Assembly: GCA_965242925.1 (NCBI GenBank)
Contig: CBDEUM010000012.1
Span: 32,001-96,000, forward strand
Length of the DNA stretch: 64,000 nucleotides
Source: Roseibacillus sp.
Lineage (GTDB): Bacteria > Verrucomicrobiota > Verrucomicrobiia > Verrucomicrobiales > Akkermansiaceae
Direction of reading: 5' to 3'
Both the position numbers and the translations under genes were made by a program. A model generated the notes under the pieces. It was not told the origin of the DNA. It searched no databases and saw only the letters and a list, made by a program, of their open reading frames with translations. Of this stretch, positions 17,198 through 64,000 are shown piece after piece (within the stretch, counting starts at the first letter, position 1; each line of letters starts with the position of its first letter).

Positions 17198-20100
17198 ATG
17201 ACCCTGTCCAAGTCCACCCGAGAACCCCTCGCCCGGGGGAAGCCCAACCCCTCGCCCAATCCTGGCCCTGATTGTTCTGACACTGGCGATGCCGGGCTGT
17301 AAACCGACGCAACGCCCCAACCAGGATTCCATTGTGGGCAACGATGCCGCTCAAATTCGCGAGCTGGTAAGCGTGGAGGAACGGATCCTCGCCCTCACCC
17401 CACAACTCCGCGAGCTCTCGAAAAGCATGCAGAACCTGCGCCTCCCGGACGGCCCCCGGCTGATCCACTTTGCGTCCGAGGTGACCGTGCGGGAAGCAGG
17501 GCAGACTGCGGACACCTCCGCCCCCGGGGATCTCGACCTGCTGCGCCCCCTCCTCAAGGAGGTGGCCTGGATCGAGCAGGCTTCCTTTTACTTCATCGAT
17601 GGGAGGTTTCCGGACGAGGAGGAGGATCTCTTCGAGGGTGAAGTGGGATTCCGTGGACTGGCCAAATTGAAATCCGGCGGATGGCAGGGACTGATCGGCA
17701 AGTTTCTCATCAAGTGGACCAGGGGCACAGGCGAGGAGGGTGCGGAATGGAAGATCAGCGGCTGGGAACAAAAGGAACTAGTGACCATGGCGAGTGCGCG
17801 GCGTCTCTTTGGCGATGCGCTGGGCACCGCCTTGCCCCGCCCGGCCGACCGGGCCCTCGCACATCGCTCTCCCCACCAGGAGGCCGCCATCAAGTTCTAC
17901 CAGGGGGCGCGAAGAAACATCCGCATCCCTACTTCGCTCCGATCTCCGTCAATCAGAAGCCCGGTCTCGCGGTGGTGGACATCGATTCAGATGGCGACGA
18001 TGACATCTATGTCACGGTCCGGATCGGGCGCAACCTGCTCTTCGAGAACCAGGGCGACGGCACTTTCGTGGAAGCGGCGGAGAAGTATGGGATCCACTTC
18101 ACCGGGCACTTCACCTGTGCGCTCTTCGCGGACTTCGACAACGACGGCGATCCGGACCTCTTCGTGGGCCGTAGCTTGAAACCCAGCCTCTACTTCGAGA
18201 ACCGGGCGGGCCACTTTTATCCCGGCCCGCAGCAGAAAGAGTTCCCGATGACGGCGGTCTCGGCTTCCGCGGCAGACTACAATGGCGACGGCTTGCTCGA
18301 TTTGTACCTGCTGACCTACCGTCCGTCGACAATCGGCGGCAACTCAAGTCCCTCGGGCGGCTCGGGCGGGGTCGGAGCACAAACCGAACACTGGCCTGAT
18401 CACTTTTTTCCGCCCGGGATGGCCGCGGAGTATTACCGCCGTCACAGGGAAGCAAACTCGCGAAACGATCCCCAGTTCCCGAACCTCCTCAACCAGATCG
18501 GACCGCCGAACATTCTCTATGTGAACCGCGGCAAGGGGCGCTTTGAAATTGCGGAGGAGAGCACCCAGTTGGGGATCTGGAGAAACTCCCTGCAGGCCAC
18601 CTGGGCGGATTATGACGAGGATGGCGACCCGGATGTCTTCATCGCCAACGACTGGGCGCCCGACAACCTCTTCCGCAACGACGGAGAGTCCGGCTTCACC
18701 GACGTCACGAAGGAGGCCGGCCTCACCGAATTCGGGTTCGCGATGGGGGCTACCTGGGGCGACTACGACAACGATGGCCTGCAGGACCTCTACGTCTCCA
18801 ACATGTTCAGCAAGGCGGGTGCCCGCATCACGAACCGCGTCCCGGGAATCGCCGAGATCTACAAGCAGTCCGCGGCCGGTAATTATCTCTACCGTCAGCG
18901 GCCCAATCACACCTTCGAGCTTGTCTCGGGAGACAAGCCCCCTGCCCTCGCGGTCACCAAGGCAGGCTGGTCGTGGGGTGGCCAGTTCGCCGATTTTGAC
19001 AACGATGGCTTTCTCGATCTCTACGTGCTGAGCGGATACTTCACCGCGCCCGAGGCCGTCTCATCGGAGCTGGACTTGTGAAGTAACCTCTGGCGCACGG
19101 TCGTGCGCACCGACAGCAACCTCGCCCGGCGCAGCTTCCGCTTTTCCGAGGAATGGAGGCGCCGCACCGGGGATGCCCCGCTCACCCCGCAGATTGACCG
19201 ACGCCTGCAGGGAGGCCGGGAGGAAGACGGCCGCTATGTCGTCCATTCCCTGAGCGGAATGGAGCGCAACCACTTCTTCATGAACCGGGACGGAAAAAAA
19301 TTCTCCGATCTCTCGCTGATTTCCGGGATCGACAATCCGGCGGACAGCCGCGGATTCGTCCTGCTCGATTACGATCACGACGGCTGGCAGGACCTCGCCC
19401 TGGTGAACGCCAACGAACCGCTCTTCAACATCTACCGGAATCAGACGGGCGAGGCTGAAGGAAAGGCGGACCACCATGTCATTGCGATTCGCTTCGAGGG
19501 CGGAGCCCGAGGAGAGGCCAGCCCCAACGAGAACTACGCTTGCCGCGACGGATATGGCGCCTTGGTCACCGCCGACCTGGGTGACCTGACGATCAAGCGC
19601 GAACATCGCTGCGGAGAGGGCTTCAGCGTGCAGAACAGCCGCACCATGGTGATTGGGATCGGCTCACGCGAAATGGTTCCCTCCCTCACGGTTCGGTGGC
19701 CATCAGGCAAGACAACCACCCGGGAGAACGTGGCAGCCGGCACCCTTCTCATCGCCTACGAAAATCCCACCCACTCGGGCGCCAGCACGCAGTTCACGCT
19801 GAGCAACTACCACGATGTTGTGCCGCGGAAGCAGGCCCCCGTCCCTCTCACCAGCTTTCCGATCACGGAGCCCGACGCCACCGCACCCATTCGGGTCTAC
19901 ACCACGATGGCCACCTGGTGTGTGGCATGTCAGTCGCATCTCCCGCAGCTCCAGGCCCTGAAGAACGGACTGGGTGAAGGGGCCGCTCTCATCGGCATTC
20001 CGATCGACCCGGACGATAACGCCAAGATGCTCACCGAGTACGCCGAGGAGTGGAAGCCTGCCTATCGCATCCGCGCCGACCTGGAATCCGACGCGCGCGC

Positions 20101-20248
20101 CGCAGTGACAAGGTTTCTTGCCGAGCAATCCGGCGAAGAGGCCGCCCTGCCCTCCACCATCATCACGAACGCCGAAGGCAAAGTCCTCAAGGTGATGTCC
20201 GGCGTGCCGGATGTCTCCATGGTTCGCAAACTCGCGGCCGGTCCTTGA
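17198..20248 (+). CDS. Putative selenoprotein: FG-GAP/VCBS repeats + ASPIC/UnbV + redoxin (CVAC) lipoprotein; in-frame TGA at 19079-19081; frameshift at 17903-17907 and possibly near 17235-17240
   Basis: DxDxDGxxD repeats; ORFs 17681-19081 and 19103-20248 share a frame separated only by TGA; DSRG, GEGFSVQNS, VRWPSG (UnbV); ATWCVAC; lipobox-like LAMPGC at about 17280-17300; start uncertain. Confidence 0.75.
19079..19108 (+). promoter_or_regulatory. UGA plus SECIS-like hairpin
   Basis: TGA + 11 nt spacer + GCGCAC-GGTC-GTGCGC perfect 6 bp stem with GGUC loop. Confidence 0.75.
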
Positions 20249-47881: not shown

Positions 47882-50800
47882 TCAGTTCCAGACCCGAAGA
47901 CGGGCGAAGAGCCGGGCCCCTGCCGGGTCGGGGGAATCCGCGCGCCAGGTTTCAATCACCAGTCCGTCGTTATTTCCGCTCGGCGTCTGACTCACCAGGA
48001 CTCCTCCCGCCGTCCAGGTCACGAGATCAGAGGAAAACTCGACCGCGTAGTTCAGTTCATCCGCGGCCACCTCCCGGGTGAAGGTCAAGGTGAGAAACGA
48101 CTCCTCGCCGTTGTCCATCGTAAAAATCCCGGCCCCGGCCACCGGCAGAAACTCCTCGGAGGCCACCATGGGATCTCCCCCGAGGAAGAACTCCAGCATG
48201 GTCACCATCCCGTCGTCGTCTCCATCCCCGAAATCCTCGGAAACCTCGTGATGCTCTTTCCAGGCGGCGTAATCCAAGGTGTCATCGTCTCCCGGTGTTC
48301 CTTCAGGATAACGACTGATGCGCCAGTTGGCCGGGTCATTGTGATCCGGCCTGAGAATTTCGTCCACATTCCGGAGCACCAGACTGAATTCACCATCCCC
48401 GCCAGGAGGCCAGGGAAGCTTATCGGCATACTCGTCAATGTCATGAATGGTGGTGCCTGCTCCAAAGGAGAGTTTCAGGCGCTCGCCACTGTTGCGCAGG
48501 TTGTCATTGGGATATTCCCCGGCAATGGGCAGTCCTGCCCCATAACGCACCTCAAAGGCGGCCCGATTCTTAACCACCAGGACGTATTCTCCCGGCTCCA
48601 GCGTCTCCATCCCGCTGCCCCCGAAGTCAAAGTCGATCCCCTTGGTAAAGCGAACGTTGCGCAGGTCGAGGGCGGTGGGTCCGACATTCTTCAGTTCCAG
48701 ATACTCGAACTCGTCCCGGTTGGTGGAAATGAGGCGCTCTTCTCCCACTGGCTCGGGCGGGTGGTACATGAATTCCGAGATGCGCAGGTCACGCAGATGA
48801 TCGGAGATATTGGGCGCAGTGGCCTGGAACTCCACGGGCTGGGACCAATGGCTCCACCGGCCGGCGGCATCCTTCATCCGCACCCGCGCCCGGTAGGTCC
48901 TGCCCACCCTGACCGCCAGGGGAGGAAACTGGTAGGCCCCATCAAAGGCTGCCAACTCCCCCGACTTGAAGCCCCCTCGATCTCGTAGATGTTGGGCCGG
49001 GCAGGATCGTAATCCGCCACCGCCGGATTGTGGACCTCGGCCAAGCGCCACTCCATGGCCGCGAAACGCGACCGACTGGGGCTGGAAAAGGTGCTGCAGT
49101 TGAAGGTCAGTCCGTCCGACGGATAGCCTTCCGGCCCGGTATAGGTGATCGTCGGTTTTCGGGGGACATCGTCCTCCTGGCTCAGAAGCGTCCTGGACAT
49201 CCAGTTCCCCCGCGATGTGATCCATGTCTTCACGACGCGCACCATCCCGGCAAAATCCCTGGTGGAGGAGATATCGTAGTAGCGGTCCTTGTGATTCAGA
49301 CGCGGGTGATTATCCCACATGCGCCGATCGACATCCACGAGGGAGGGCTCTTCCGGGGTGTAGACGAACTTCATGGTCTCATCCACCAGCTTGTAGCCCT
49401 CGTCACGATTGAAGAGCAGGTCGAGAATCTCGCGCACACGGTTCTGGTAGTCGGTATTGAAGGCCGGATTCTGGGCCACCTTCGATTTGAAATCGTGATT
49501 CCCATTGCCATACATGTTGTTGGCGAAGGTGAGATCAAGATCCCAGGGGAGGAGCTCGAATTTGTCGGTCTCCGGGTTGTGGTAGTAGAAATAGTTCTTA
49601 CCGTAGGCGATATCGTAATGGTGAATGGCTTCCACCACCGTGCGATAGCTGAAGTATTTCTCGATGTTGAAATTATCCTGCCACCATTGCGCCGAGGGAT
49701 TCCTGCCGCGGTAACCGCTGATAAACGCGGAAACATCGGAGCGGTTTTTGACCTGGGTGGGGCCCTGGTTGTTGGATTCCCCGCTGTGTCCCTCGATCTT
49801 GTAGAGATTGCCGTCAGGCAGACCGTGCTCGTCCAGAAACTGCCCGTCCAACTGTTCGACGGCGAGGAAGAGCCCATAATAATCTGTCCCATACTGCGAG
49901 CGCTCCGGACGGGACTGGTCAATGACGTAGAACTGCACGTGATGGGTCTTGCTGGCTTCCACTCCGCAGAGCTCAAAGAGACGGAATCCCACTCCCTCGA
50001 AGAGTCCCTGCTCTCCCCGGTGCTGAAAATTCACCTGCTGAACGATGGAGGAGAAATTCAGTTTGCTCCACTTGGTGTCGTACTCGTTTCCGTATTCATC
50101 CCGGGCCTGGAATCGGTGCCCGCGATTGAAATCAAACTTCCAGAAATTCTTGCCGAACTGGAAGCGGTGCACTCCTCCCCGGGGCCGGTAACGGATATGG
50201 TCGTAGACCCTCCCTTCGTAGACAAGCGTCCCGGGCCAGAGATATTCCGATCCTCCGTATCCCCCAAACTGCGATTCGTCCACCCAGGAGGACTTGCTCA
50301 GCAGGAAGTAGGTCGGGATACTGGACATCAGTTCTCCCGGATAAGTCACCGGGGGGTCTCCCTCCCGGATCCCACCCCTCCAGTCGGGGGTCCCATTATA
50401 GACAAAGTAGGCGAAGTTGGATTGCGGATCATCCTCGTAGGGAACCTGCACCGAGCTTCCTCCGGCATCCTCTACCGTGATGCGATAACGTACCAGGTAG
50501 CGGTTCCGGTTCACATTGAAAGGCACGGTCCCGGTATAGACGCCGTCCCCGGCCTCTTCATCGTCGCCCTGGCCATCATCGGTCATGGGCAGATCCACCC
50601 ATCCACGGTCATAGGCCGGATCAAGGTTTGCCGTCCCGTTCTGGCTATACTTGAGGTAACGGCCGAAATAAGCCCCGGCTCTCACCAGCTGGTAGGACAG
50701 CGTCACGGAGTCCACCCCATCCGGATCAGTCACCTGGGCCGTGATCACGACCGGTTCGTTGGAAACCGGTTGCCGGGGAGAGTGGGAGACCTGCCTCGTC

Positions 50801-51366
50801 TGGGGCGGCGCCTCGGTGGAGTAGGTCACATTCCGCAGACCCGGGCTGGGTCGCCCGGATCTCCAACTCCCGCCCAGATCGGTTTCCAGGGCCGGATGAA
50901 TCAACTGGATGGACGGGCTCACTCCTGCCACCAGGTCCCCGACGGTGGGCCAGGGAAACCCCAGACGATAATCCACCTGGCTCACCACCGCACCTTCCGG
51001 ATCCCGCAGGTTCACCGTCTCCCCGCTGTTGCGGAGTCTGCCACTCCACGGCCCGAGCGCTCCACCCCGCCGGAACTTGCTCTCGATGGTCACCGGATCC
51101 TGGGCGATGATCAGATACGCTCCGCTCTCAATCCTGGTGGCCGGCGGAAAGAGGAAATCGACCCCTCCGGATATTTCCCAGCCCTCGAGACTGACTGCAG
51201 ATTCAGTGGGATTGAATACTTCAATAAACTCCGCCGTCACCGTCTTATCGGCCTCGTCGTAGTGAATTTCGTTGATGACGAGCGAAGGCACGTCGAGTTG
51301 AGCGAAGGCACTCTGGACTGCGGTCAGCAGGCCGACGACATAAAGGATACGGCGGACGGATTGCAT
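47882..51366 (-). CDS. Secreted lamin-tail / CotH kinase-family protein (frameshift in C run 48972-48976)
   Basis: VINEIHY..EFIEVFN; KNFWKFDF, KNYFYY, LPWDLDL; ISEFMYHP; C-terminal SSDLVTW..FARLRV. Confidence 0.82.
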
Positions 51367-51518
51367 GGATCGGGGGTATGGGGAAATACAACCTGCCCCG
51401 GCCTCTGCGTCAAAGCAAACCCTGTCACGCATAAAATCCGGCCCGTCGTCCCATGCACTTTTGACTGTAGAAAGATGCATTCCGAGGTTAAAGGAGTGGA
51501 TCCGGAAGCTCTGAATCC

Positions 51519-54512
51519 GTGAATTACTGCTCTAACAAATTCCCTTCCCGAGGGCTGATGGCTGGCCTCGCTGTAGTCCTCATGGGATTGCTTGCTACCC
51601 AGGCACGAAGCGATTCACGGGATCACGAACAGGGCCTGCAATTCTTCGAGCGCAGGATTCGCCCCGCCCTGGTGACGCACTGCTACGAGTGTCACTCCGC
51701 AGGTTCCAAGAAGGTGGGCGGCAAGCTCTACCTGGATCATGCAGGGGGGCTCCTGCGGGGTGGCGAGTCCGGCCCTGCGATTGTCCCCGGCCGCCCCGGG
51801 GAGAGCCTTTTCATCCGGGCGATCCGGAAAGAGAATGACGACCTCGTCATGCCCCCGGACGACAAACCTTCCCTGCCGGAAGCTGTCGTTAACGATCTTG
51901 TCGAGTGGGTGAGACGCGGGGCTCCCGACCCCCGTGCCTCACCTGGCGGAAAGAGCCCACAGGAAGTAATGCCCGATGAGGCCGCCCTCTGGTCCTTCCA
52001 GCCACTCGGAAAACCAACTCCCCCTCCGCTACGCGACCAGGACTGGCCCAGGAATGACATCGACCGGTTCCTCCTTGCCCAACTGGAGTCCCGGGAATTC
52101 CGGCCCGCCGATGATGCCCCGCCCGAAACGCTGATCCGTCGACTCTACTGCGACCTCGTCGGATTGGCTCCGACCTACGACGAGATCGGTGAATTCCTCA
52201 GCGCCTGCCAGCAGAACAGGCAGTCTGCAGTGGAGGCCCTGGTCGATCGCCTCCTGGCCTCGCCTCATTTCGGTGAACGCTGGGGCCGGCACTGGCTGGA
52301 TGTTGGGCGTTACGGCGAATCGAATGGCAACGATGGACTGGGGCGCAATCCGACCTTCCCCCACGCCTGGCGATACCGGGACTACGTCATCCAGGCCTTC
52401 AACGACGACGTCCCCTACGATCTCTTTCTGAAGCAGCAGATCGCCGGGGACCTCCTCCCCTCCTCCTCCCCCGGGGAACGCCACCGCAACCTGACCGCCA
52501 CCGGCTTCCTCGCCATTGGACACAAACCGGCTGCTGCCATGAACGAGAACTTCGCCATGGACGTGGTGGACGACCAGATCAACACCGTGGCTACCGCGAC
52601 GATGGGACTGAGCGTCGCTTGCGCGCGCTGTCACGACCATAAACACGACCCCATCTCAACCCGGGACTACTACGCCCTCGCCGGGATCTTCAGGAGCACC
52701 GAGACGCTCTGGGGAAAAGCGGCCAACGAGAAACTCACCGCGCCAGCTACCCCCCTCCATGACCTGCAGGTCAAGACCGGGAAACCAGAGGAGAAGTCGG
52801 CTCCGGAATTTGCCAAGGGTTACGGCGAGGCGATCAATGCATTAAAGCCCGTCCTCTACGCGTCCCTGTCGGGTCCGGCGGAAAACCTCGTAATCGAGAA
52901 AGGGGTGACGCTCGCGCCAGGGACTTTTGCCAGGACGGAGGAAGGTCGTCTGCAAGCCGGGTCCGCCCTTCCGGTCAACAGCTATTCCGTCTCCTTCTGG
53001 TTCCGCAATGATCTCGGTAATAGCACGCGGGCCATTACCGCCTACCTCTTCTCCCATGCCGTGCTCGGTGACAAGGAACAGAAGGGAGATCACCTTGGAA
53101 TTGGTGGCACCCATGACCCGGGCCGGTCCGGCAAACTCTTCCTCTGGAACGGCACCAGGCAGAACGAGGGCGCAGCCGGCACCAGGGTCCTCGCTCCCGG
53201 CAACTGGAATCATGTGGTTCTTGCCCGCGACGGCAAGCGCATGCGCCTCTACCTGAACGGAGACCCCAAGCCCGAAATTGATGCCGAGATGCAGGTGGCC
53301 GCCCCTGTAAACGGGACCATCTCCATCGGCGCCCGCAATGACCGCTTCGCTCCTCTCAAGGGTTTCCTCGCTCACCTGGCGGTCTTCGATCGGAGCCTGG
53401 GGCCGGGTGAGGCCAACCGTCTACATGCCGCATCCGGCCAGAAACCGGGAACCCGGGAAGCACCTAGACCAGCTTTCGCGATGGGAGTAAGGGAGGGCAA
53501 GGCGATCACAGACTGCAAGATCAACATCGACGGCAACTCAAAGAAACTTGGATCCAGCGTCCCCCGGGGATTTCTTCCTGCCTGCTCGACGGAACTCAGT
53601 CCCCCCATCATCGGAACGGAGGCGAGCGGACGTCTGCAACTGGCGGACTGGCTCACCCGGGGCGACCACCCGCAGACTGCCCGCGTGATGGCCAATCGGA
53701 TCTGGCTTCATCTCTTCGGCCGTGGTCTGGTGACCACTCCTGATGATTTCGGCGTCTACGGAGCCCGCCCCTCTCATCCCGAACTCCTTGACCACCTCGC
53801 CCGGCGCTTCATGGAGGACGGCTGGTCGACAAAGAAACTGATCCGCACCATTACCCTCAGCCGCAGCTACCAGCTCGACAGCTCCTGCCAGGATAATCGG
53901 TTACTGGAAGCCGACCCGGCAAACGTCCTGGCCGGAAGACACCAGCGTCGAAGCCTCGACGCGGAGTCCCTGCGCGACCGCATCCTGCAGGCTGGCGGCA
54001 CGCTTGACCTGGAACCCGCCCGGGGCTCCGCGATCGATGATCTCGATATCCTCCTCAACTGGCCGCCGGGAGAGGCCAAGTATCTCCATGAACCAAGCAC
54101 CCACCGCAGTGTGTATCTCTGCATGCTGCGCAATGCGTTGCCAAAGGAACTGAGCTCCTTCAACTTCCCTGATGGCATGACCGTGACAGGCCAGCGCAGC
54201 ACGGCCACTCCGCCTACCCAGGCCCTCTTCTTCCTGAACAATCCCCTGCTCATCGCCCAGGCCCGATCCCTGGCCGAACGGATTCTCGCTCAGTCGGTTC
54301 TCTCCGACCAGCAGGCTAATCTCGAATCCAGAGTCACCACCGCCTATCGACAAATCCTGCAGCGGAATCCTTCCAGGGAGGAAGTGACCCGCGCCCTCTC
54401 GCACGTGCACGATCAGGAAGTGGACCTCTCCGGGGCTGGCTCAACCCTCCGGGCGTGGGCAAGTTTTTGCCAAGCGTTATTGGCAAGTAACGAGTTTCGT
54501 TATATTGACTAG
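51519..54512 (+). CDS. Planctomycete cytochrome c / DUF1549 / LamG / DUF1553 protein
   Basis: FFERRIRP..CYECH, GERWGRHWLD, CARCHDHK, RVMANRIW, HPELLD, SNEFRYID. Confidence 0.92.
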   Translation: MNYCSNKFPSRGLMAGLAVVLMGLLATQARSDSRDHEQGLQFFERRIRPALVTHCYECHSAGSKKVGGKLYLDHAGGLLRGGESGPAIVPGRPGESLFIRAIRKENDDLVMPPDDKPSLPEAVVNDLVEWVRRGAPDPRASPGGKSPQEVMPDEAALWSFQPLGKPTPPPLRDQDWPRNDIDRFLLAQLESREFRPADDAPPETLIRRLYCDLVGLAPTYDEIGEFLSACQQNRQSAVEALVDRLLASPHFGERWGRHWLDVGRYGESNGNDGLGRNPTFPHAWRYRDYVIQAFNDDVPYDLFLKQQIAGDLLPSSSPGERHRNLTATGFLAIGHKPAAAMNENFAMDVVDDQINTVATATMGLSVACARCHDHKHDPISTRDYYALAGIFRSTETLWGKAANEKLTAPATPLHDLQVKTGKPEEKSAPEFAKGYGEAINALKPVLYASLSGPAENLVIEKGVTLAPGTFARTEEGRLQAGSALPVNSYSVSFWFRNDLGNSTRAITAYLFSHAVLGDKEQKGDHLGIGGTHDPGRSGKLFLWNGTRQNEGAAGTRVLAPGNWNHVVLARDGKRMRLYLNGDPKPEIDAEMQVAAPVNGTISIGARNDRFAPLKGFLAHLAVFDRSLGPGEANRLHAASGQKPGTREAPRPAFAMGVREGKAITDCKINIDGNSKKLGSSVPRGFLPACSTELSPPIIGTEASGRLQLADWLTRGDHPQTARVMANRIWLHLFGRGLVTTPDDFGVYGARPSHPELLDHLARRFMEDGWSTKKLIRTITLSRSYQLDSSCQDNRLLEADPANVLAGRHQRRSLDAESLRDRILQAGGTLDLEPARGSAIDDLDILLNWPPGEAKYLHEPSTHRSVYLCMLRNALPKELSSFNFPDGMTVTGQRSTATPPTQALFFLNNPLLIAQARSLAERILAQSVLSDQQANLESRVTTAYRQILQRNPSREEVTRALSHVHDQEVDLSGAGSTLRAWASFCQALLASNEFRYID

Positions 54513-54524
54513 GAGAACGAGGCG

Positions 54525-55865
54525 ATGCGAACACTCTCTCGACGTAGATTGCTCCAGGCCACCGGTTGTGGCTTCGGTTCCCTCGCCCTCAATGCCCTCT
54601 GTGGAACCAGCGCCTCCGCAGGGAGCCTCCACCGCAAGACGCCTCCCATCCCGGCTCGGGCCAGACGCGTCATCTTTCTCTGCATGCCGGGTGGACCGGC
54701 TCACCTCGACACCTTTGACTACAAGCCACAGACCGGCAAAACGGAGCATCCGGGATCCGCTTTCCAGTTCAGCCAGCACGGCGAAAGTGGCCTCTGGGTT
54801 TCTGAACTCTATCCCGAAGTGGCCCGGCATGCCGACAATCTCTGCGTGCTCAACGGGATGTATGCCGACACCGGGAATCACGCGCAGTCCTTCCGGCAGA
54901 TGGTCACCGGCGAACGACTGCGCCCTCGCCCCAGCCTGGGCTCATGGGTGAGCTACGGCCTCGGGACTGAGAACGGGAACCTTCCAGGCTTCGTCAGCCT
55001 CAACGCTCACGAGCAGTACGTGTCCTCCGGGGAGTTTCTTCCCGCCCAGTTCACAGGCACTCCCATCGGAACCAACGGTGAGGACATGTCCCTGGCCACC
55101 ATCTCCGATGTGGGCAGCGACCACCTCTCCCAGCGAGCCAAGCGACGCCAACTCGATCTCATCCAGGCCATGAACCACGGTCACCTTGAAGCTCGCGCCG
55201 ATGACCCAAGACTGGAGAGCGTGATCGAATCGATGGAGCTTGGCTTCCGGATGCAGGCCCTCGCCCCCTCTCTGCTTGACGTGAGCACCGAATCCCAAGC
55301 CACCCTCGCGCGCTACCGGGTCGGCAGGAATATCAAGGTGGGCACCTGTCGGCCGTCCGACTTCGGACGCCAGTGCCTCCTGGCCCGCCGCTTTGCGGAA
55401 GCGGGCGTGCGCTTCATCCAAGTTTCCCACAACGGCTGGGATCAGCACAAGAACCACCGCCGCGACCTCAAGGCCAATTGCGAATCGACTGACGCCCCCA
55501 TTGCCGCGCTCCTTGGGGACCTTGATCATCGCGGACTCCTCGACGACACCCTCGTGGTGTGGGGCGGAGAATTCGGGCGTCCCGGCCTCAAACCATCCGA
55601 CAAGAAGGACGAGACGGGTCATCAACCGGCCGGATTCACCTTCTGGCTGGCGGGCGGTGGAGTGAAGCGCGGACTGGCCTACGGCGGGACCGACGGCACC
55701 GGTTCCAAGGCGGTGGAGGGAAAGATTCACTTCCGCGACCTGCACGCCACCATCCTGCACCTCCTCGGTCTGGAACACGACAAACTCACCTTCCCGCATC
55801 AGGGTCGCCTCCACCGTCTTACCGGGCCGGAAGGCGGAAAGGTGGTGAGCGAAATCCTTGCCTAG
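54525..55865 (+). CDS. DUF1501 domain protein (Tat signal)
   Basis: [36 protein letters not shown]. Confidence 0.92.
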
Positions 55866-56013
55866 GTGACCCGCTATAAGAAGAAAAACAGAGAATTCCG
55901 CGTCCGCCCCTCCGGTCTCCTTCCCAGAAATTGTCCGGACCACGTCACGTTTCGACACTCCGTTCCCGCTCTTGCTGGCCCCATCGCGTCTGCTACGGTT
56001 TTGTTCTGGAACA

Positions 56014-59000
56014 ATGAAACGCACGGTCACCACCCGCCTCTCGTGCACGCACGGCCTGGGACTCCTCCTCGGCCTGGCGATCCTGTTCAGCGCCTGCAAC
56101 GAGAACGGTGGCAACTCCGGGAACGAACCTGCTCCTCCAGCGCGCCAACCGCCCCAACCGGACAAGGGCGCCGCACAAGCTCCTCCCTCTTCTTCGGACG
56201 CCACCCCCAACCCCGTGATTCCTCCCAGCCCCGCCGTGAAGGCTGGCCCCGCGGAAACGGCTCCCGGCCTGGGCCAGGGGAACCTCATTGCTCCTCTCCG
56301 CGATGCCTACGAACGGATGGATCCGGGCAAGGACGGCTGGGCCTCCGAGGCATTCAGCGCCTCGGCCAGCGAACAGTTGCACCTTCTCGAAGACCTCCTC
56401 GGAGGCCCCGATGACATCACGGCTGCCTCCCTGGGAGAACTAGCGGTGGCGGAGGTATCGACCACCGCCCTGCGGCCAGAGAACCTGTCACTCACTTTCG
56501 ACGACGGCCGCTTCCTCGTCCGGCGTCCCCCTGCCTTGCCGGGCCATAATACACCCGGGATCGCAGCCCTCTCCGCCACCCTGAACAAGCTGCGCCCCGA
56601 GGAGGGCTCCATCGATCCCCACATGAAAATCTTCCGCGTTTTCCCCGGGGAAAAAGGCACGGCCAAATGCCTGGTGCTGGTGGACATCCTCAACCATAGC
56701 GGGCAGTCGCGAACCCAGATCAATGCGACCTGGTCCTGCAACTGGAGGCTTTCCCCCGACCAGTCCCCGCTCCTGACCTCGATCGCGCTCACCAGATACG
56801 AGGAAATCACGCAATCCGTCGACTCCCGGCCCCTTTTCGCCGATGCCACCCGGACCCTCCTCGACCGGGAGGATGCATATCACAAACAGTTCCTCCATTC
56901 CTCGGACCACTGGCGGGCCCACCTGCCCCGCGAACTGGGACTCGACCCGGTGGCCAATCATGGCCTTGCCATTGGCGACATCAACGGTGACGGCCTCGAC
57001 GATCTCTATGTATGCCAGCAGGGGGGCCTTCCCAACCGGATGTTCCTCCAGAATCCAGACGGCACCCTGCGCGACATCACCCGGACCAGTGGTGCCGGAT
57101 GGCTTGAATACTGTGCTGCAGCGCTCCTCGTCGATCTCGACAATGACGGCGACCGTGACCTGATCGTTTCACAGGACTTTCGGGTGATGGTCATGGCCAA
57201 TGATGGCAACGGGGCCTTCACCCTTGCCTTCGGTTCCTCCACCAAGGCCCAGTCATTCTCACTGGCAGCTGCCGACTATGACAACGACGGCCTCGTCGAT
57301 TTCTACATCTGCGGATACAACCCGTCCCAGTCCAAACTGCGGGGCGGAGCGATGGGAGAGCCCATGCCTTTTCACGATGCCAACAACGGCGGACCCAACA
57401 TGCTGTGGCGCAACGAGGGCAACCTGGGATTCAAGGACGTCACCGGAGTCACCGGCATGAACGCAAACAACACCCGCTACTCCTTTGCCGCCTCGTGGGA
57501 AGACTACGACAACGACGGTGACCAGGACCTTTACGTTGCCAATGACTATGGTCGAAACTGCCTTTACCGCAACGACGGTGGTTCCTTCTCTGAAATTGCA
57601 GCCGGGCTGCACCTTGAGGACACCTCTTCCGGCATGTCGGTGAGCTGGGCCGACTTCAACCTCGATGGCCAGATGGACGTCTACACCAGCAACATGTTCT
57701 CCAGTGCCGGAAACCGCATTACCTACCAGAAACAGTTCAAGTCCGACCTGCCCGAGGACGTTCGGAAACAATTCCAGCATCTTGCAATCGGGAACTCCTT
57801 GTTTGAGGGCGTTGCCAATAAGCCCTTCAAGGACGTGGGGATCGGAGCCGGGGTCAACATGGGCCGCTGGGCCTGGGGCTCAAAGTTCGTCGATTTCAAC
57901 AACGACGGCCGGGACGATATCCTGGTCGCCAATGGCTTCATCACCACTGCGGACACCGGCGACTTGTGAAGTGTCTACTGGCGGCAGGTCGTGTCGCAAT
58001 CCCCCGTCGATGATTTCTCCGAACCCGCCATCGCCTCCTACAAGCAGGGATGGCGGGCGCTGAGCCGTCTCCTGCACGAGGACCGCAGCTTCAGCGGCAA
58101 CGAACGCCACTGCGCCTTCCTCAACACCGGTAGCGAAGAGGCGAGCTTTGCGGATGTATCAGCTCTCACCGGATTCGGTTTTTCTGACGATGGTCGCGGC
58201 CTTGCCACGGTCGACTGGGACTTTGACGGGGATCTCGACGTCTGGATGACAAACCGCAACGCCCCTCGGGTGCGTTTTCTCACCAATCACACGCCGCCCG
58301 GCCAGAAGTTCATTGCCATTAAGCTCCGCGGGAACGGCAGGACCTGCAACCGTGACGCCATCGGGGCGCGCCTGGAGCTAACCCTCGAAGGGGTGGCACC
58401 AGCCACCCGCATCCGCACCCTGCGCTGCGGGGAGGGCTTCCTCTCCCAGTCCAGCAACTGGGTTCACTTCGGCATCGGTAAAGCCACCGGAATCACCAGC
58501 CTGGTAGTCAAATGGCCTGCCGGACCGGCCGAGAGCTTCACCGGCCTGCAGGCGGGTACATTCTGCCTCATCCAGCAGGGCACCGGGGCGTCTCGCCTCT
58601 TCTCCCCACCAGAACAGCGCGTTGTCTTGACTCCGCGGGAACAGACTCCCCTTCCTCCCACCGGAAACACACGTACCATCGCTCCCGCAGGACTTCCCCT
58701 GCCCCGGCTGGAAGTGATCGGGGAAAACGGGGAACTGCAACCTTACGCCCCCGACGGAAAACGTCCCCTCGCCATCAATATCTGGTCAAGTATCTGCGCA
58801 GCATGTGTGGCCGAACTATCCGAGTGGTCAGAGCACCGTGACGATTTGGCAGGAGCGGGCCTCGACGTGCTCACGCTCAGTACCGACCACCTCGATGGCG
58901 CGGCTCCACCGGAAGCGACGCGGGCCGCCCTTGCCAGGACCAGTTCCCCCTTCCCCAACCTGTCCATCTCGGAAGCCGCCCTCAAGGGTCTCGACTTCCT

Positions 59001-60069
59001 GCAGCGCTCCGTCCTCGATCGCAGGACCCCCCTCCCCGTTCCGAGCACTTTCCTGATCAACACCGACGGGGAACTGGTGGCCTTCTATCGGGGGCCGGTT
59101 GCCGTCAACCAGCTCCTCCAGGATCTGCGCCTGACGGGAACAGAGCAGCCCCCTGATGCCCGACGCAATGCCGCCATCCCCTTCCCCGGGCGCTGGATCG
59201 GCAAGGCCGTCCCGGGACGACCCAATCGCGTCGCTTCGATCATGGCTGACCACGATGAAGTCGAACTCGGGGCTGCCTACCTGGAACACTGTGCTTCCCT
59301 CCTCGAATCAAAAGCAGATGATCCAGACAGCAGACGCAATCTCGGTGATATCTACTACGTCGCCGGACTGCTGAACGGACTCAAGTCCGATCGCCGCGAA
59401 CTCGCCATCGAGCAACTCTCCCGCGCTCGTGAGCTGATGCCGCAGGACGTTCGCATCCGTTTGGAACTGGGGCGTCAATTCTTCCTGGCGGGACAATTGC
59501 ACAACGCCGAGCAGGAGATGGGCAAGGCTGCCGAGATCAACCCCGGTGACCTGGCACTGCTCATGGATCTCGGGTTGATGCGTTTTCGCCTGGGAGAATA
59601 CGAGAAATCACATGAGGTTTACAGGAACGTCATCCGGGCCACGCCCCGCAACGGTCTGGCCCGCTATCACCTGGCCAATAATGAAGTCCGGCTCAGGCGA
59701 TTGCCAGAAGCCATCGAAAACTATCGCAGGGCTCTTGCTCGTATTCCGGATCTCACCGAGGCCGCCAACAACCTGGCATGGATCCTCGCCAGTCATCCCA
59801 ATGAGAATCTTCGATCCCCGGAAGAAGCGCTCACCATCACCACCCGCCTCTGCCAACAAACCCGGGAGCGATCCCCGCTCTATCTGGACACCCATTCGAT
59901 CGCCCTGGCCAATCTCGGGAGGTTCCAGGATGCCATCGCGACCGCCAACAAGGCGATTGCGCTCATCCCTCCACGGAACGCGTCCGCGATCGATGGCATC
60001 CGCGGACGCATCTCCCTCTACGCCGCCAGCAAGCCCTACCGTGAACGTGGATGGAAAATGGAAGATTGA
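56014..60069 (+). CDS. Putative selenoprotein: FG-GAP/VCBS repeats + ASPIC/UnbV + redoxin (CAAC) + TPR lipoprotein, about 1351 aa with TGA 57967-57969 read through
   Basis: Lipobox LFSAC; FG-GAP repeats; ORFs 55972-57969 and 57991-60069 share a frame; DGRG, DAIGA, GEGFLSQSS, VKWP; WSSICAAC; TPRs with NNLAWILA. Confidence 0.82.
57967..57997 (+). promoter_or_regulatory. UGA plus SECIS-like hairpin
   Basis: TGA + 11 nt + GCGGCA-GGTCG-TGTCGC (6 bp including one G-U). Confidence 0.75.
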
Positions 60070-60329: not shown

Positions 60330-63300
60330 ATGAAGGCCCACACCTTATTCACTTCTCTTTCCATCCTGGCCGGCGGTGCAACCATCGCAGGCGCAGCCAC
60401 CATAATAGGCGACGGCGCAGCCCGCCCATTCGCCAGCGGGGGAAGTCCCGATGGCTGGTCCGGGGTCAGCGTGCTCGAAACCGCCATCATCGACTCTACC
60501 ACCGTAGACGGCGTGGGGACCCTTGTCGAAATTACGGAGGTCTCGATGTTGGCCGGGGCTGATCGCGCTGGCGGAGTTCACCACTTTGCACCCATCCTCA
60601 TCGACTCCTCAAACCAAATCGCCTGGATCGGTCCTGAGCTCACCCCGACGCAGCCCGGCCACAATGTCTTTCCCATTACCGGAGCGGAGCTGATTGATGT
60701 CACCTACCGAAACCTACCGACTCGGCGTCTGGCAGTGGAATGAGGGTGTTGATGACAACGCCGGGGGGACCGTCGCCTTCGCCGGAGGTGGCGGCGGCGG
60801 GATGTTCCAGCAGAATCTCAATGGAACTCTCGGTGCCGATGCCATTTCGATCGGCCACGATGTTTCGGGGGGGGAACAACATGCCTCTGGTCCCGGTGGT
60901 CGCGACTACCAGATCGATGTGGTGGCCACCCGTGTTGCAAGCGCCGATGGCGACGGCGACGGGTTGCCGGATTCATGGGAAACCGCCAACAACCTCGATC
61001 CGACCGACAACGGCCAAGATCCGAATAACAACGGTGTTGCGGGCGATCCGGACCAAGGCGCTGACGGCGACCCGGACAACGACAATCTGACGAATCTGGA
61101 GGAGTTCGAGCTCCACACCGATCCCACCGATGATGATTCGGATGATGACGGTCTCACCGATGGCGCGGAAGCCACTGCCGGCACTGACCCGCTCGATGCC
61201 GACAGCGATGGAGACGGCCTGCCCGACGGGGTGGAAACCGGCACCGGCACCTTTGTCGACGCCAACGACACCGGCACCGACCCCCTCGATGTCGACAGTG
61301 ACGACGACGGGGTGGGTGACCAAGCCGAGATCGCATTTAATACCGATCCCAATGATGCCGCCTCAAAACCGGACGGCATCGCCGAGCTCGACACCCTGAG
61401 CATACTGCCTACCGGCAACTACGCGTTCCTGGGTGGCGGGCAAATCGTCAACGGCTACGTCGAGAACGATGGCACCCACAGCTGGCTGCTGGTTGGGCGG
61501 GGCCGCGAGGGCTGGACCTGGAACGCAGCCGGCCAGGGATCGGCAAACAACGTGAGCCAGGATATCGGAACCCCTGACGCGTTCGCGCCGGCCACCTACA
61601 GCACGGCTTTCATCAACGACCTGATCAGCGGATCGGGCGCTGATCTGACCGGAGTGGAGATTCGTATCAAGCGTGCAAGTAACCCGGAAGGCTCCGCCTA
61701 CGAGGAAGGGCGCTGGCGTCCGATTACTGAAAGCGCATGGCGATGGAACTTTGATGCCGCCATGCAGGTCGAGTATGAAGTGGTGGCCACCAACGGTGTC
61801 CAGGGTGGACAGCTTGGAACCCAGAACCGCGACACCCGTGACGGTGAGCTTGGCGGCAACGACGGGGACCGCATCTTCACCTGGAACTGGGGTGACCATG
61901 GGGTCATGGGCTTCAGTTTCGGCAGCCTGGTCGGTAACGGCTCGACCGATGCAACCAGCTTTCTCTGGGAGAATGGTAATGAGAACCACGCCATTCCCTA
62001 CGCCGAAATCTACATCCGCCTTGAGAACCCGGGTCAGGTTCCCGGTGATGATACTGATGGTGACGGCATCGTTGATATCGTCGAGGTGGCACTTGTGGGC
62101 AACCTGGATGACCTCACTGCCGGCGATGACGACGGTGACGGCCTTGACAGTCCTGACGAGATCTCCACCCACGGCACCGACCCCAATGATCCCGACACCG
62201 ACGGTGACGGACTGGATGATGGAGCCGAGATCGCCGCTGGAGCCGACCCGCTGAATACCGACAGCGACGGCGACGGCCTGCTCGATGGCGTGGAGACCGG
62301 CACCGGCATCTTTGTCGATGCCAACAACACCGGCACCGACCCCCTCGACATCGACAGTGATGGCGACGGTGCCAGTGACTCGTTCGAGATCAGCGAGAAC
62401 ACCGATCCGAACGATGCCGGCAGCACTCCGTCCTTCCCGATCGTGCAGCCCTCCTTCGTTCCCATCAATGAACTGGCCCCCGGCTCCTACGGGCCGGACT
62501 TCGCCCAGAGAGGAGTGAACTACCAGGAGAACCACTACGGCGGCGGTGTCATCTTCAACAACAACGCCCTGGGCAACTACAACGTGCACACCTCGGGAGT
62601 TCCGGCCCCCACCGCCTCCTTCGATGCCATCGAACCCCTGACCGCCCATGGTAATGGCGGGGGAACCATCTCCATCCACAACCGCCCCTGGCTCGACGCT
62701 GGCGGGGAGAACTTCACGGCGCGCTACAACGGCTACCTCGACATGACGGCCTTCAACCCGGGGACCTACAAGATCCACCTCGGGGCCGATGACACCAACT
62801 ACTTCATCATGAACACCGCAGACGGCGATGTCATCTCACAGCACAACTGCTGCCCGGCGAACCAGGAGCACACCTTCACCATGAACATCCCCGGCATGTT
62901 CCCCTTCGACAACGTCTTCGGGGAGCAGGGCGGCGGCGACTGGACCGAAGTCGGCATCAGCGGCCCCGGCATCCCCGGGATCGTGGCCCTCGGTGACACC
63001 GCCAACGGCAGCCCCCCGGTTTATCCCATCGGAGCGGATGCAGAGGACAGTGACGGCGACGATCTCCCGGACGCCTGGGAGACCGCTTGGGTCGCCATCA
63101 ACGACCTGACCCAGTTGTCCGATACAGGGGACTTCGACGCCGACGGGCTCACCGACCTGGAGGAACTCGCCGCCGGCACCAATCCCACCGACACCGACAG
63201 CGACGGCGACGGGATCTCTGACGGGGCCGAAACCAACACCGGCACCTTTGTCAACGCCAGTGACACCGGAACCAATCCTCGCGATGCCGACACCGATGGT

Positions 63301-64000
63301 GACGGCCTCAACGACGGCGAGGAGATCACCGAAGGAGCGGACGGATTCATTACCAATCCGACGGACACCGATACCGATGGGGATCAGATTCAGGATGGCA
63401 GTGATTCCCACCCCACCGATCCCACTCTCCCCGAGAAAGGCAATTTCTTCGCAATCGAATTCTTCGGGCCCGATGACCTCTTTGTCTCGGGCGATTCCGA
63501 GCTCGATCCCGGCAAGGTCGTCATCGCCGTCAACGTCTTCGGCAACAACGACTCCAATGTGAACGGTGTGACCTTCTTCACCGACCGCGCCGGCCTCGGT
63601 GACGCGGTCACCAATGAAGGAGTGGTCACCTCGGACGGCGTGACCGTGACTTCCAGTTCGACCCACACCATCGACGGCTGGAGTCTTCCCGCGCCCAGCT
63701 TCACCGGCGGCACCCCCGGATCCGCGGGCAATTTGAGCGAAATCATGGCCGACATCAGGTGGTCGGCAGCCCCCAGTCCCCTTCCTGTCGACATCGATGG
63801 TCTCGAACCCGGCCAGGAGTACATCGTCGATCTGCTGACTTACGAGGGCGCGGATCGCACCCGCTTCTGGGACATCAGTGTCAATGGGATCCTGGAATTC
63901 GACAACTATTCGTCCGAGGGCGACACCAACCTCGGCCATACCTGGGGCCCCGACAAGGCGCATGGACTTCGTGGAACAGTGAAGGCCACTCCGCAGGGTA
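60330..64000 (+). CDS. Large secreted protein with TSP3-like Ca-binding repeats and a PA14-like domain, running off the window end (frameshift near 60705)
   Basis: Signal peptide; the frame from 60706 is open to 64000; repeated DSDGDGLxDGxE and [15 protein letters not shown]...GADD. Confidence 0.8.

Follow-up and report, generated by a model that had tools for sequence, protein, structure and literature searches.

The 64,000-nucleotide stretch of Roseibacillus sp. DNA analyzed here (hereafter the window; GenBank assembly GCA_965242925.1, contig CBDEUM010000012.1, positions 32,001 to 96,000 of the forward strand; Verrucomicrobiota, Akkermansiaceae) carries a large gene, 56014-60069, whose reading frame contains an internal TGA codon. 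With TGA read as selenocysteine (Sec, U), the gene forms a single frame of 1,352 positions, which comprises 1,351 residues and the terminal stop. Only two TGAs occur in this frame, one at residue 652 and the other as the terminal stop codon. The internal codon lies in the context ...TADTGDL-U-SVYWRQVVSQSP..., where the codons directly 3' encode SVYWRQVV. Under translation table 11 the frame is broken into two open reading frames (ORFs), 55972-57969 and 57991-60069. The nearest cysteine is more than three residues away from U652, and neither a UxxC nor a CxxU motif is present. The initial annotation had described the TADTGDL-TGA reading as lying inside an FG-GAP/UnbV region and outside a classical UxxC motif, and this was confirmed by translation and domain search. 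Comparison of the sequence with its homologues predicts that UGA-652 is very probably recoded to selenocysteine.

The predicted protein consists, from the N- to the C-terminus, of a lipoprotein signal, an NTF2-like domain, an FG-GAP propeller, a UnbV/ASPIC domain, a TlpA/ResA-like thioredoxin domain and TPR repeats (Table 1). The signal, predicted by eye from the translation, is followed by a proline-rich linker that extends up to about residue 85, and C28 is present in 52% of 82 Sec forms. With this signal, the 1,351-residue protein would be exported and is probably lipid-anchored.

Table 1 Features of the predicted selenoprotein gene and of a second family gene in the window
Feature	Position in the window	Strand	Basis or remark
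Selenoprotein gene (predicted), whole	56014..60069	+	Single frame, one internal TGA; stop TGA 60067-60069
Probable lipoprotein signal peptide, ends LFSA-C28	56014..56097	+	Read from the translation
NTF2-like (SnoaL / ketosteroid-isomerase-like) domain, residues ~93-293	56290..56892	+	AF2 and Foldseek
FG-GAP beta-propeller, residues ~315-760	56956..58293	+	Pfam, AF2, Foldseek
UGA-652, read as selenocysteine	57967..57969	+	Translation, alignments, AF2 model
SECIS-like hairpin	57981..57997	+	Stem 57981-57986 with 57992-57997; loop GGUCG 57987-57991
UnbV/ASPIC beta-sandwich, residues ~764-865	58303..58608	+	Pfam; strands in the AF2 model
TlpA/ResA-like thioredoxin domain	58669..59148	+	Foldseek matches to ResA/TlpA; CxxC motif
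C-terminal TPR repeats	59383..59973	+	Pfam TPR families; NCBIfam TPR matches to residue 1319
Second, shorter family gene	17963..20248	+	tblastn, motif, hairpin; start uncertain

The domain assignments are based on profile searches and on AlphaFold2 (AF2) models. A model of residues 80-300 (predicted local distance difference test score, pLDDT, 90.3) adopted an NTF2-like fold, and a Foldseek search with it gave 3rob as top match (E 2.5e-5, TMt 0.74), ahead of further enzymes with this fold, namely ketosteroid isomerases and bile-acid dehydratases. The propeller is recognized by Pfam FG-GAP_3 (PF13517) with 132.4 bits against a cut-off of 26.9, and the following beta-sandwich by UnbV_ASPIC (PF07593; residues 782-848, 55.5 bits against 23.4). 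Residues 290-1060 were modeled from 114 sequences with high confidence (pLDDT 94.6, predicted template modeling score 0.94), so that TGA-652 sits within a confidently folded domain. The Sec corresponds to model residue 363 and is the first residue of helix 363-373, which belongs to a two-helix insertion of the propeller. The last domain of the model matched ResA and TlpA in Foldseek (TMt 0.69-0.81), while the Pfam AhpC-TSA match to residues 908-1022 scored 22.8 bits and thus remained under the gathering cut-off of 26. Its active site is formed by C928-A-A-C931 (58795-58806) together with E934. The two cysteines are model residues 639 and 642, located before and within helix 640-651, which places the CxxC motif at the helix start.

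The internal TGA is conserved at its position. The loci with a TGA in this genome and in 40 relatives number 39, and in all of them the codon falls into one and the same alignment column. A whole-genome search that read through stop codons returned 13 loci in this genome that match with exactly one TGA; a motif scan likewise gave 13 family sites with TGA in all 13, among which the pairs on contigs C12/C17 and C28/C37 are identical or nearly so. In the 40 relatives, exactly one TGA was present in 147 of the 150 matches listed, and the remaining three do not cover the site. Among 80 loci from named metagenome-assembled genomes, 64 had TGA and 12 another residue, while four were left unresolved by the motif scan. 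Altogether, 94 distinct genes carry TGA in this column, and they span three phyla: Verrucomicrobiota (among them Akkermansiaceae and Roseibacillus), Planctomycetota (including Phycisphaerae and Pirellulaceae) and Acidobacteriota (Bryobacterales, Thermoanaerobaculia). As the codon shares one alignment column across the TGA-bearing loci, its presence is, on the evidence of the sequences, not a chance event.

We then considered what an in-frame stop at this position could otherwise mean. A recent pseudogene with a nonsense mutation would account for the in-frame stop itself but for nothing more, and its probability is practically negligible: the same TGA is found in 94 distinct genes of three phyla, and the ratio of non-synonymous to synonymous substitution rates (dN/dS) remains well under 1 in both halves. 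Calculated against eight orthologues, dN/dS was 0.03-0.20 in the 300 codons 5' of the TGA and 0.09-0.36 in the 650 codons 3' of it, and these low values suggest that both halves are translated under selection. If the TGA were a true stop, two proteins would be made, an N-terminal one of 651 residues and a C-terminal one of about 690. Databases do carry the halves as separate proteins: among 120 database matches, 33 represent halves whose end (9 N-terminal) or beginning (24 C-terminal) coincides with the site, further examples being P0153 (652 aa) and P0215 (690 aa), and a GTG codon that might serve as a start is located seven codons 3' of the TGA. However, the SVYWRQVV peptide right after the TGA is homologous to the motif in uninterrupted homologues, many of which are present in the databases with DL-x-SFFWRQVV kept, and the listed GTG is nothing but the codon for the second valine of this motif. 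In addition, such a split would cut the folded propeller of the AF2 model, and no conserved start or ribosome-binding site was visible among 34 aligned sites. We therefore regard the production of two separate proteins as very unlikely.

Bacterial recoding of the E. coli fdhF type depends on SelB and an in-frame selenocysteine insertion sequence (SECIS); there, a mini-SECIS with a GGUC-type loop is found 11 nt 3' of the UGA. The criteria applied to stem-loops in this study (an apical G or GU at a suitable distance) follow the bSECISearch model and this mini-SECIS. The RNA 3' of TGA-652 reads AGU KUC UWC UGG CGR CAG GUC GUG UCG C and can form a stem of 6 bp, GCGRCA/UGUCGC, which is separated from the UGA by a spacer of 11 nt (57970-57980). 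Across the 94 distinct Sec sites, all six pairs are formed in 77 and five of the six in 12; at four other sites the register is shifted by one and the loop is GGUC. The initial annotation had proposed a selenoprotein, and this interpretation is supported by the fully paired hairpin 11 nt downstream in 77 of 94 distinct TGA sites. Distant members of the family possess the hairpin with changed letters, e.g., CGCAC[GGUC]GUGCG, AGCAC[GGUC]GUGCU, CGGCAG[GUC]CUGCCG and GGUUGU[CGUGUC]ACAACC. The synonymous positions within the hairpin are strongly constrained in Sec forms: third-base entropy was 0.64, 0.17 and 0.51 bits at Val+7, Val+8 and Ser+9, respectively, and about 1.9 bits at codons +11 to +15, while 12 non-Sec homologues gave 1.25, 1.46 and 1.28 bits at the three codons of the hairpin. 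Within the genome, the stem is present after 435 of 141,318 TGA triplets, a background rate of 0.31%, and the stem combined with a loop starting with GGU after only 11 of them, of which seven belong to family genes. The terminal stop TGA at 60067 has no such hairpin in front.

The structure is thus similar to the E. coli fdhF type in its in-frame UGA, the 11-nt spacer, the short stem and the G-U in the apical loop, and tRNA-Sec, selB and selD are likewise present in the genome. It differs in that the stem has just 6 bp and that a bulged U or a lower stem is not evident. Furthermore, the host protein here is an exported multidomain propeller, whereas the fdhF product is a cytoplasmic molybdoenzyme. 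The hairpin was recognized through comparison of homologues and not through minimum-energy folding; in the alignment, 88.2% of the cells of the stem were paired, as opposed to 19-66% when the partner strand was slid. An Rfam search of the window at gathering thresholds returned only a tRNA.

The genome encodes a tRNA-Sec (59 bits) with the anticodon UCA, selB (287.5 bits against a cut-off of 242) and selD (366.6 bits), the latter itself with one in-frame TGA. This selD (G000:C14:573853-574776; L017, TGA at locus position 1531) is a selenoprotein gene with the sequence SSCAG-U-ASK. The hairpin following its TGA, CGCGCAG[GUC]CUGCGCG, serves as an internal control: it has the CAGGUC apex in common with the family hairpin and is located about 25 nt further from the UGA.

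The TGA forms of the family are also distributed along with the selenocysteine machinery. They occur in 22 of the 40 relatives, and sel genes were found in all 22. selB is present in 20 of these; the other two, G013 and G015, carry selA, and G013 additionally a tRNA-Sec. Four of the 18 relatives without TGA forms have selB and 14 do not, so that TGA forms are found in none of the 14 selB-less genomes; as the relatives are not independent of one another, we give this association without a p-value. The expectation of the initial annotation that TGA versions would be restricted to sel-positive genomes thus held. The same pattern is seen within a single genus, where sel genes and a TGA form occur together in G033 and are both lacking in G027. 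G033 is a relative assembled as a single contig, on which some 7 kb separate a TGA family gene from a cluster of selB, selA and tRNA-Sec (G033:C1:4458409-4469671).

These data also bear on whether the UGA might be read through with an ordinary amino acid such as Trp, Cys, Arg or Gly, by near-cognate decoding or by a suppressor tRNA. The tolerance of homologues for many different residues at this site would be compatible with this. The confinement of the TGA forms to relatives with sel genes and their absence from the 14 selB-less ones would not be expected, nor would the SelB-type spacing, the GGUC loop and the apex that is common to the selD hairpin of the genome. Moreover, TGA also serves as the normal stop of this very gene. 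We assign little probability to ordinary read-through.

Several observations weigh against selenocysteine insertion directed by this hairpin. Minimum-energy folding of the 70 nt 3' of the TGA gave no better result than that of shuffled sequences (z = +0.83): 158 of 200 shuffles folded at least as well, and the predicted structure differs from the hairpin. Covariation in the stem is weak, with one pair that changes on both sides and a covariation score that was reached by 74 of 500 shuffles. Support for the hairpin thus comes from its conservation, spacing and loop sequence. In addition, some non-Sec homologues, the acidobacterial L138, L140 and L147 with Asn or Ala at the site, can form the hairpin UGGCGGC[AGGUG]GUCGCCA (-9 to -12 kcal/mol) at this position from their WRQVVA codons. 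Hairpins in non-Sec homologues indicate that the structure is partly a by-product of the conserved peptide WRQVV[SA]; those of L138, L140 and L147 could be either vestigial SECIS elements or a pre-existing structure that could have aided the arrival of Sec. Finally, selA was not found in this assembly, whose completeness is 89.9%. As 18 of 19 congeneric genomes carry selA, its absence here is likely an assembly gap.

Taken together, we regard the synthesis of one exported 1,351-residue protein through SelB-dependent, hairpin-directed recoding as close to shown. In the proposed mechanism, SelB with Sec-tRNA(Sec) would bind the GGUC(G)-loop hairpin 11 nt after the UGA, Sec would be inserted at position 652, and translation would then continue to the next TGA at 60067.

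To address the role of the Sec, we compared the residues at this site among the homologues. In 234 pooled sequences (loci and proteins), the site is occupied by U in 92, N in 47, S in 29, E in 24 and D in 12 cases, and more rarely by A (9), C (7), Q (5), Y, R and G (2 each) or V, M and T (1 each); sampling is uneven, as the Sec forms come from genome searches around this organism and the non-Sec forms from protein databases. The Cys and Ser versions that the initial annotation had expected elsewhere thus both occur, but the replacements are mostly N, S, E and D, and Cys is rare. The closest full-length matches, P0003 and P0004, do have Cys at the site. Judging by these counts, the family is not a classical Sec/Cys pair.

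The presence of Sec goes along with that of an intact thioredoxin site. Of the 85 Sec forms whose thioredoxin domain can be aligned, 82 contain the CxxC motif, compared to 16 of 105 non-Sec forms. At the level of single columns, C928 is conserved in 99% of the Sec forms versus 18% of the non-Sec forms, C931 in 96% versus 30%, E934 in 96% versus 20% and C700 in 67% versus 10%. Next to the Sec itself, K205 of the NTF2-like domain (56626-56628; 95% versus 4%) shows the highest specificity for Sec forms and may line the active site; S661 is also among the most specific columns.

Based on the position of the Sec at the N-terminus of an inserted helix and its retention together with an intact CxxC..E site, the most likely function is that of an extracytoplasmic selenol/thiol redox relay, a proposal that we hold with evenly balanced confidence. 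The Sec would form a substrate-facing redox center that reacts with a peroxide, a disulfide, a sulfoxide or a small molecule. A small substrate may be bound by the NTF2-like domain and a partner by the TPRs, and the fused TlpA/ResA-like CxxC..E domain would re-reduce the Sec, possibly through C700. An analogy may be provided by Neisseria PilB, an exported protein in which a thioredoxin-like domain is fused to MsrA and MsrB. The fused TlpA-like domain of PilB/Msr proteins is thought to recycle the neighboring catalytic residue. Unlike PilB, the 56014-60069 protein has no Msr domain. Homologues without Sec have mostly also lost the CxxC motif and probably keep a non-redox role only.

Two results count against such a catalytic function. 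Cys occupies the site in just 7 of 141 non-Sec homologues, unlike in classical redox selenoproteins, and this rarity weakens the catalytic interpretation. Also, when the link between Sec and CxxC was evaluated over 10 phylogenetically independent pairs, about 5.2 pairs went the same way, 0.0 the opposite way and 4.7 showed no difference (median p 0.06); the test is underpowered, and its direction agrees with the link. Sec might thus be inserted without acting as a redox catalyst that is recycled by thioredoxin, and serve instead as a ligand for a metal or metalloid, as a structural residue, or as a selenium-dependent gate that determines whether the full-length protein or its 651-residue N-terminal part is made. 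The residues at the site in uninterrupted homologues, mostly polar and capable of acting as ligands (N, S, E, D) and rarely Cys, would fit this explanation. FG-GAP propellers often bind cations, which would be in line with a ligand role. The lack of UxxC or CxxU and the link to CxxC that does not reach significance on independent pairs point in the same direction. On the other hand, C928, C931 and E934 are kept at 96-99% in Sec forms, the Sec is located at a helix N-terminus, which is the usual place of a redox Cys or Sec, and the Sec-form-specific C700 is kept in 67%. We consider a ligand, structural or gating role possible, albeit unlikely.

With respect to the history of the site, a FastTree tree of 232 rows required at least 20 changes between Sec and non-Sec, a count that cannot separate gain of Sec from its loss. 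Sec forms are found in every major branch, the deepest included (midpoint rooting). We tentatively propose, while considering it somewhat doubtful, that Sec is ancestral to the whole DLxSFFWRQVV clade of CRTAC1-like proteins and has been lost at least 20 times, nearly always to residues other than Cys and alongside decay of the thioredoxin site. As a corollary, the WRQVV[SA] peptide would itself encode a SECIS-like hairpin at the right distance, and the RNA may have set the position of Sec.

The individual parts of the protein have counterparts in known systems. Like murine CRTAC1 (PDB 9etn), it contains an FG-GAP propeller followed by a UnbV/ASPIC sandwich, and Foldseek aligned 594 columns to 9etn_A (E 4.4e-27, TMt 0.71). 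The Sec-bearing segment is not shared with CRTAC1, as the phmmer alignment to 9etn omits query positions 161-272. CRTAC1, in contrast, is not a selenoprotein and lacks the NTF2-like, thioredoxin and TPR parts. The similarity to ResA, TlpA and CcmG comprises the thioredoxin fold (TMt up to 0.81), the CxxC motif at the helix start and a Glu at the third position beyond the second Cys; the spacing of C928/C931/E934 equals that of C74/C77/E80 named in ResA entry titles. Unlike in these proteins, the thioredoxin is here one domain of a 1,351-residue protein. The NCBIfam ResA-like selenoproteins with WAxxUGC differ from the present one, in which the Sec lies outside the thioredoxin domain and NF041054 scores just 16 bits.

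The initial annotation had proposed a new selenoprotein family, which needs to be qualified. NCBIfam contains no model for the family and gave only TPR and weak ResA-like matches, and literature searches that paired selenoprotein or selenocysteine with FG-GAP, ASPIC or CRTAC1 returned nothing relevant. The terms FG-GAP, ASPIC, UnbV and propeller do not occur in the available portions of the main texts of a 2026 review (PMC13188914), BSepDB (PMC13326102), deep-Sep (PMC12013277) and a 2022 review (PMC9312934), nor do FG-GAP, ASPIC, UnbV, VCBS or CRTAC1 in the available content of the four deep-Sep supplements. Yet, Table S9 of Kim et al. 2016 (PLoS One, PMC4807772) lists four such candidates with the same domain description. 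Each is annotated there as two adjacent genes split at the TGA; the closest uninterrupted match is acidobacterial with G as the aligned residue, and bSECISearch found a SECIS in three of the four. These candidates, for which only IMG identifiers are given, appear to belong to the same family as the 56014-60069 gene when matched by description. They are confined to four rows of the supplement, without family analysis, structure or a link to the thioredoxin site, and FG-GAP and UnbV do not occur in the available portion of the main text. The family could still be named in the BSepDB family table S2 or by Haft & Tolstoy 2025 (mSystems). In summary, the recoding is real and of an ordinary kind, and the family in which it occurs is effectively uncatalogued. 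What is unusual is the occurrence of Sec where homologues rarely have Cys, its combination with an intact CxxC..E site, and the number of 11-13 copies in a single genome.

The second family gene in the window (Table 1) has its Sec codon at 19079-19081 in the context ..SSELDL-U-SNLWRTVV.., followed by its own hairpin CGCAC[GGUC]GUGCG and a thioredoxin domain with WCVAC; it has no NTF2-like or TPR part. No frameshift was found in this gene, as tblastn aligned it in a single frame (17963-20023). The ORF upstream of it (17289-18179) had no Pfam match. An identical copy of the gene is located on contig C17 of the same assembly. In both the C12/C17 and the C28/C37 pair, the identical or near-identical copies are found on separate contigs, with one of them at a contig end; recent duplications or assembly redundancy (contamination estimate 3.2%) may account for them.

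Upstream of the 56014-60069 gene, positions 49030-55865 encode, on the same strand, an 830-residue ORF without Pfam match, a PSCyt1/PSCyt2/PSD1 (DUF1549/DUF1553) protein and a DUF1501 protein. The pair of PSCyt/PSD1 and DUF1501 proteins is typical of the Planctomycetota-Verrucomicrobiota group. On the 3' side, a large ORF with bacterial TSP3 repeats (60694-63999) is open at the end of the window, and in L070 a Laminin_G/TSP3 protein likewise follows the homologue. In the two homologous loci checked, L068 and L070, the neighbors were WD40/MoxR and GH3/Laminin_G, respectively. A conserved gene partner was not seen in these two loci, and the neighborhood was thus uninformative.

If UGA-652 is indeed recoded, current annotation breaks the members of a large and widespread protein family into halves. 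A selenoproteome otherwise dominated by small thioredoxin-fold proteins and cytoplasmic enzymes would then gain an exported multidomain beta-propeller type, and 11-13 selenoprotein genes would be added to one verrucomicrobial genome of 4.6 Mb. The family breaks the rule of Sec/Cys pairs used by homology-based selenoprotein finders, which may explain why it was missed, and it constitutes a natural test of what Sec does that Cys cannot. Should Sec be ancestral, the family would represent an exported selenoenzyme with a chemistry that Cys cannot serve, and marine Verrucomicrobiota and Planctomycetota would be unusually selenium-rich from this one family. This would point to an unrecognized extracytoplasmic selenium-dependent redox process.

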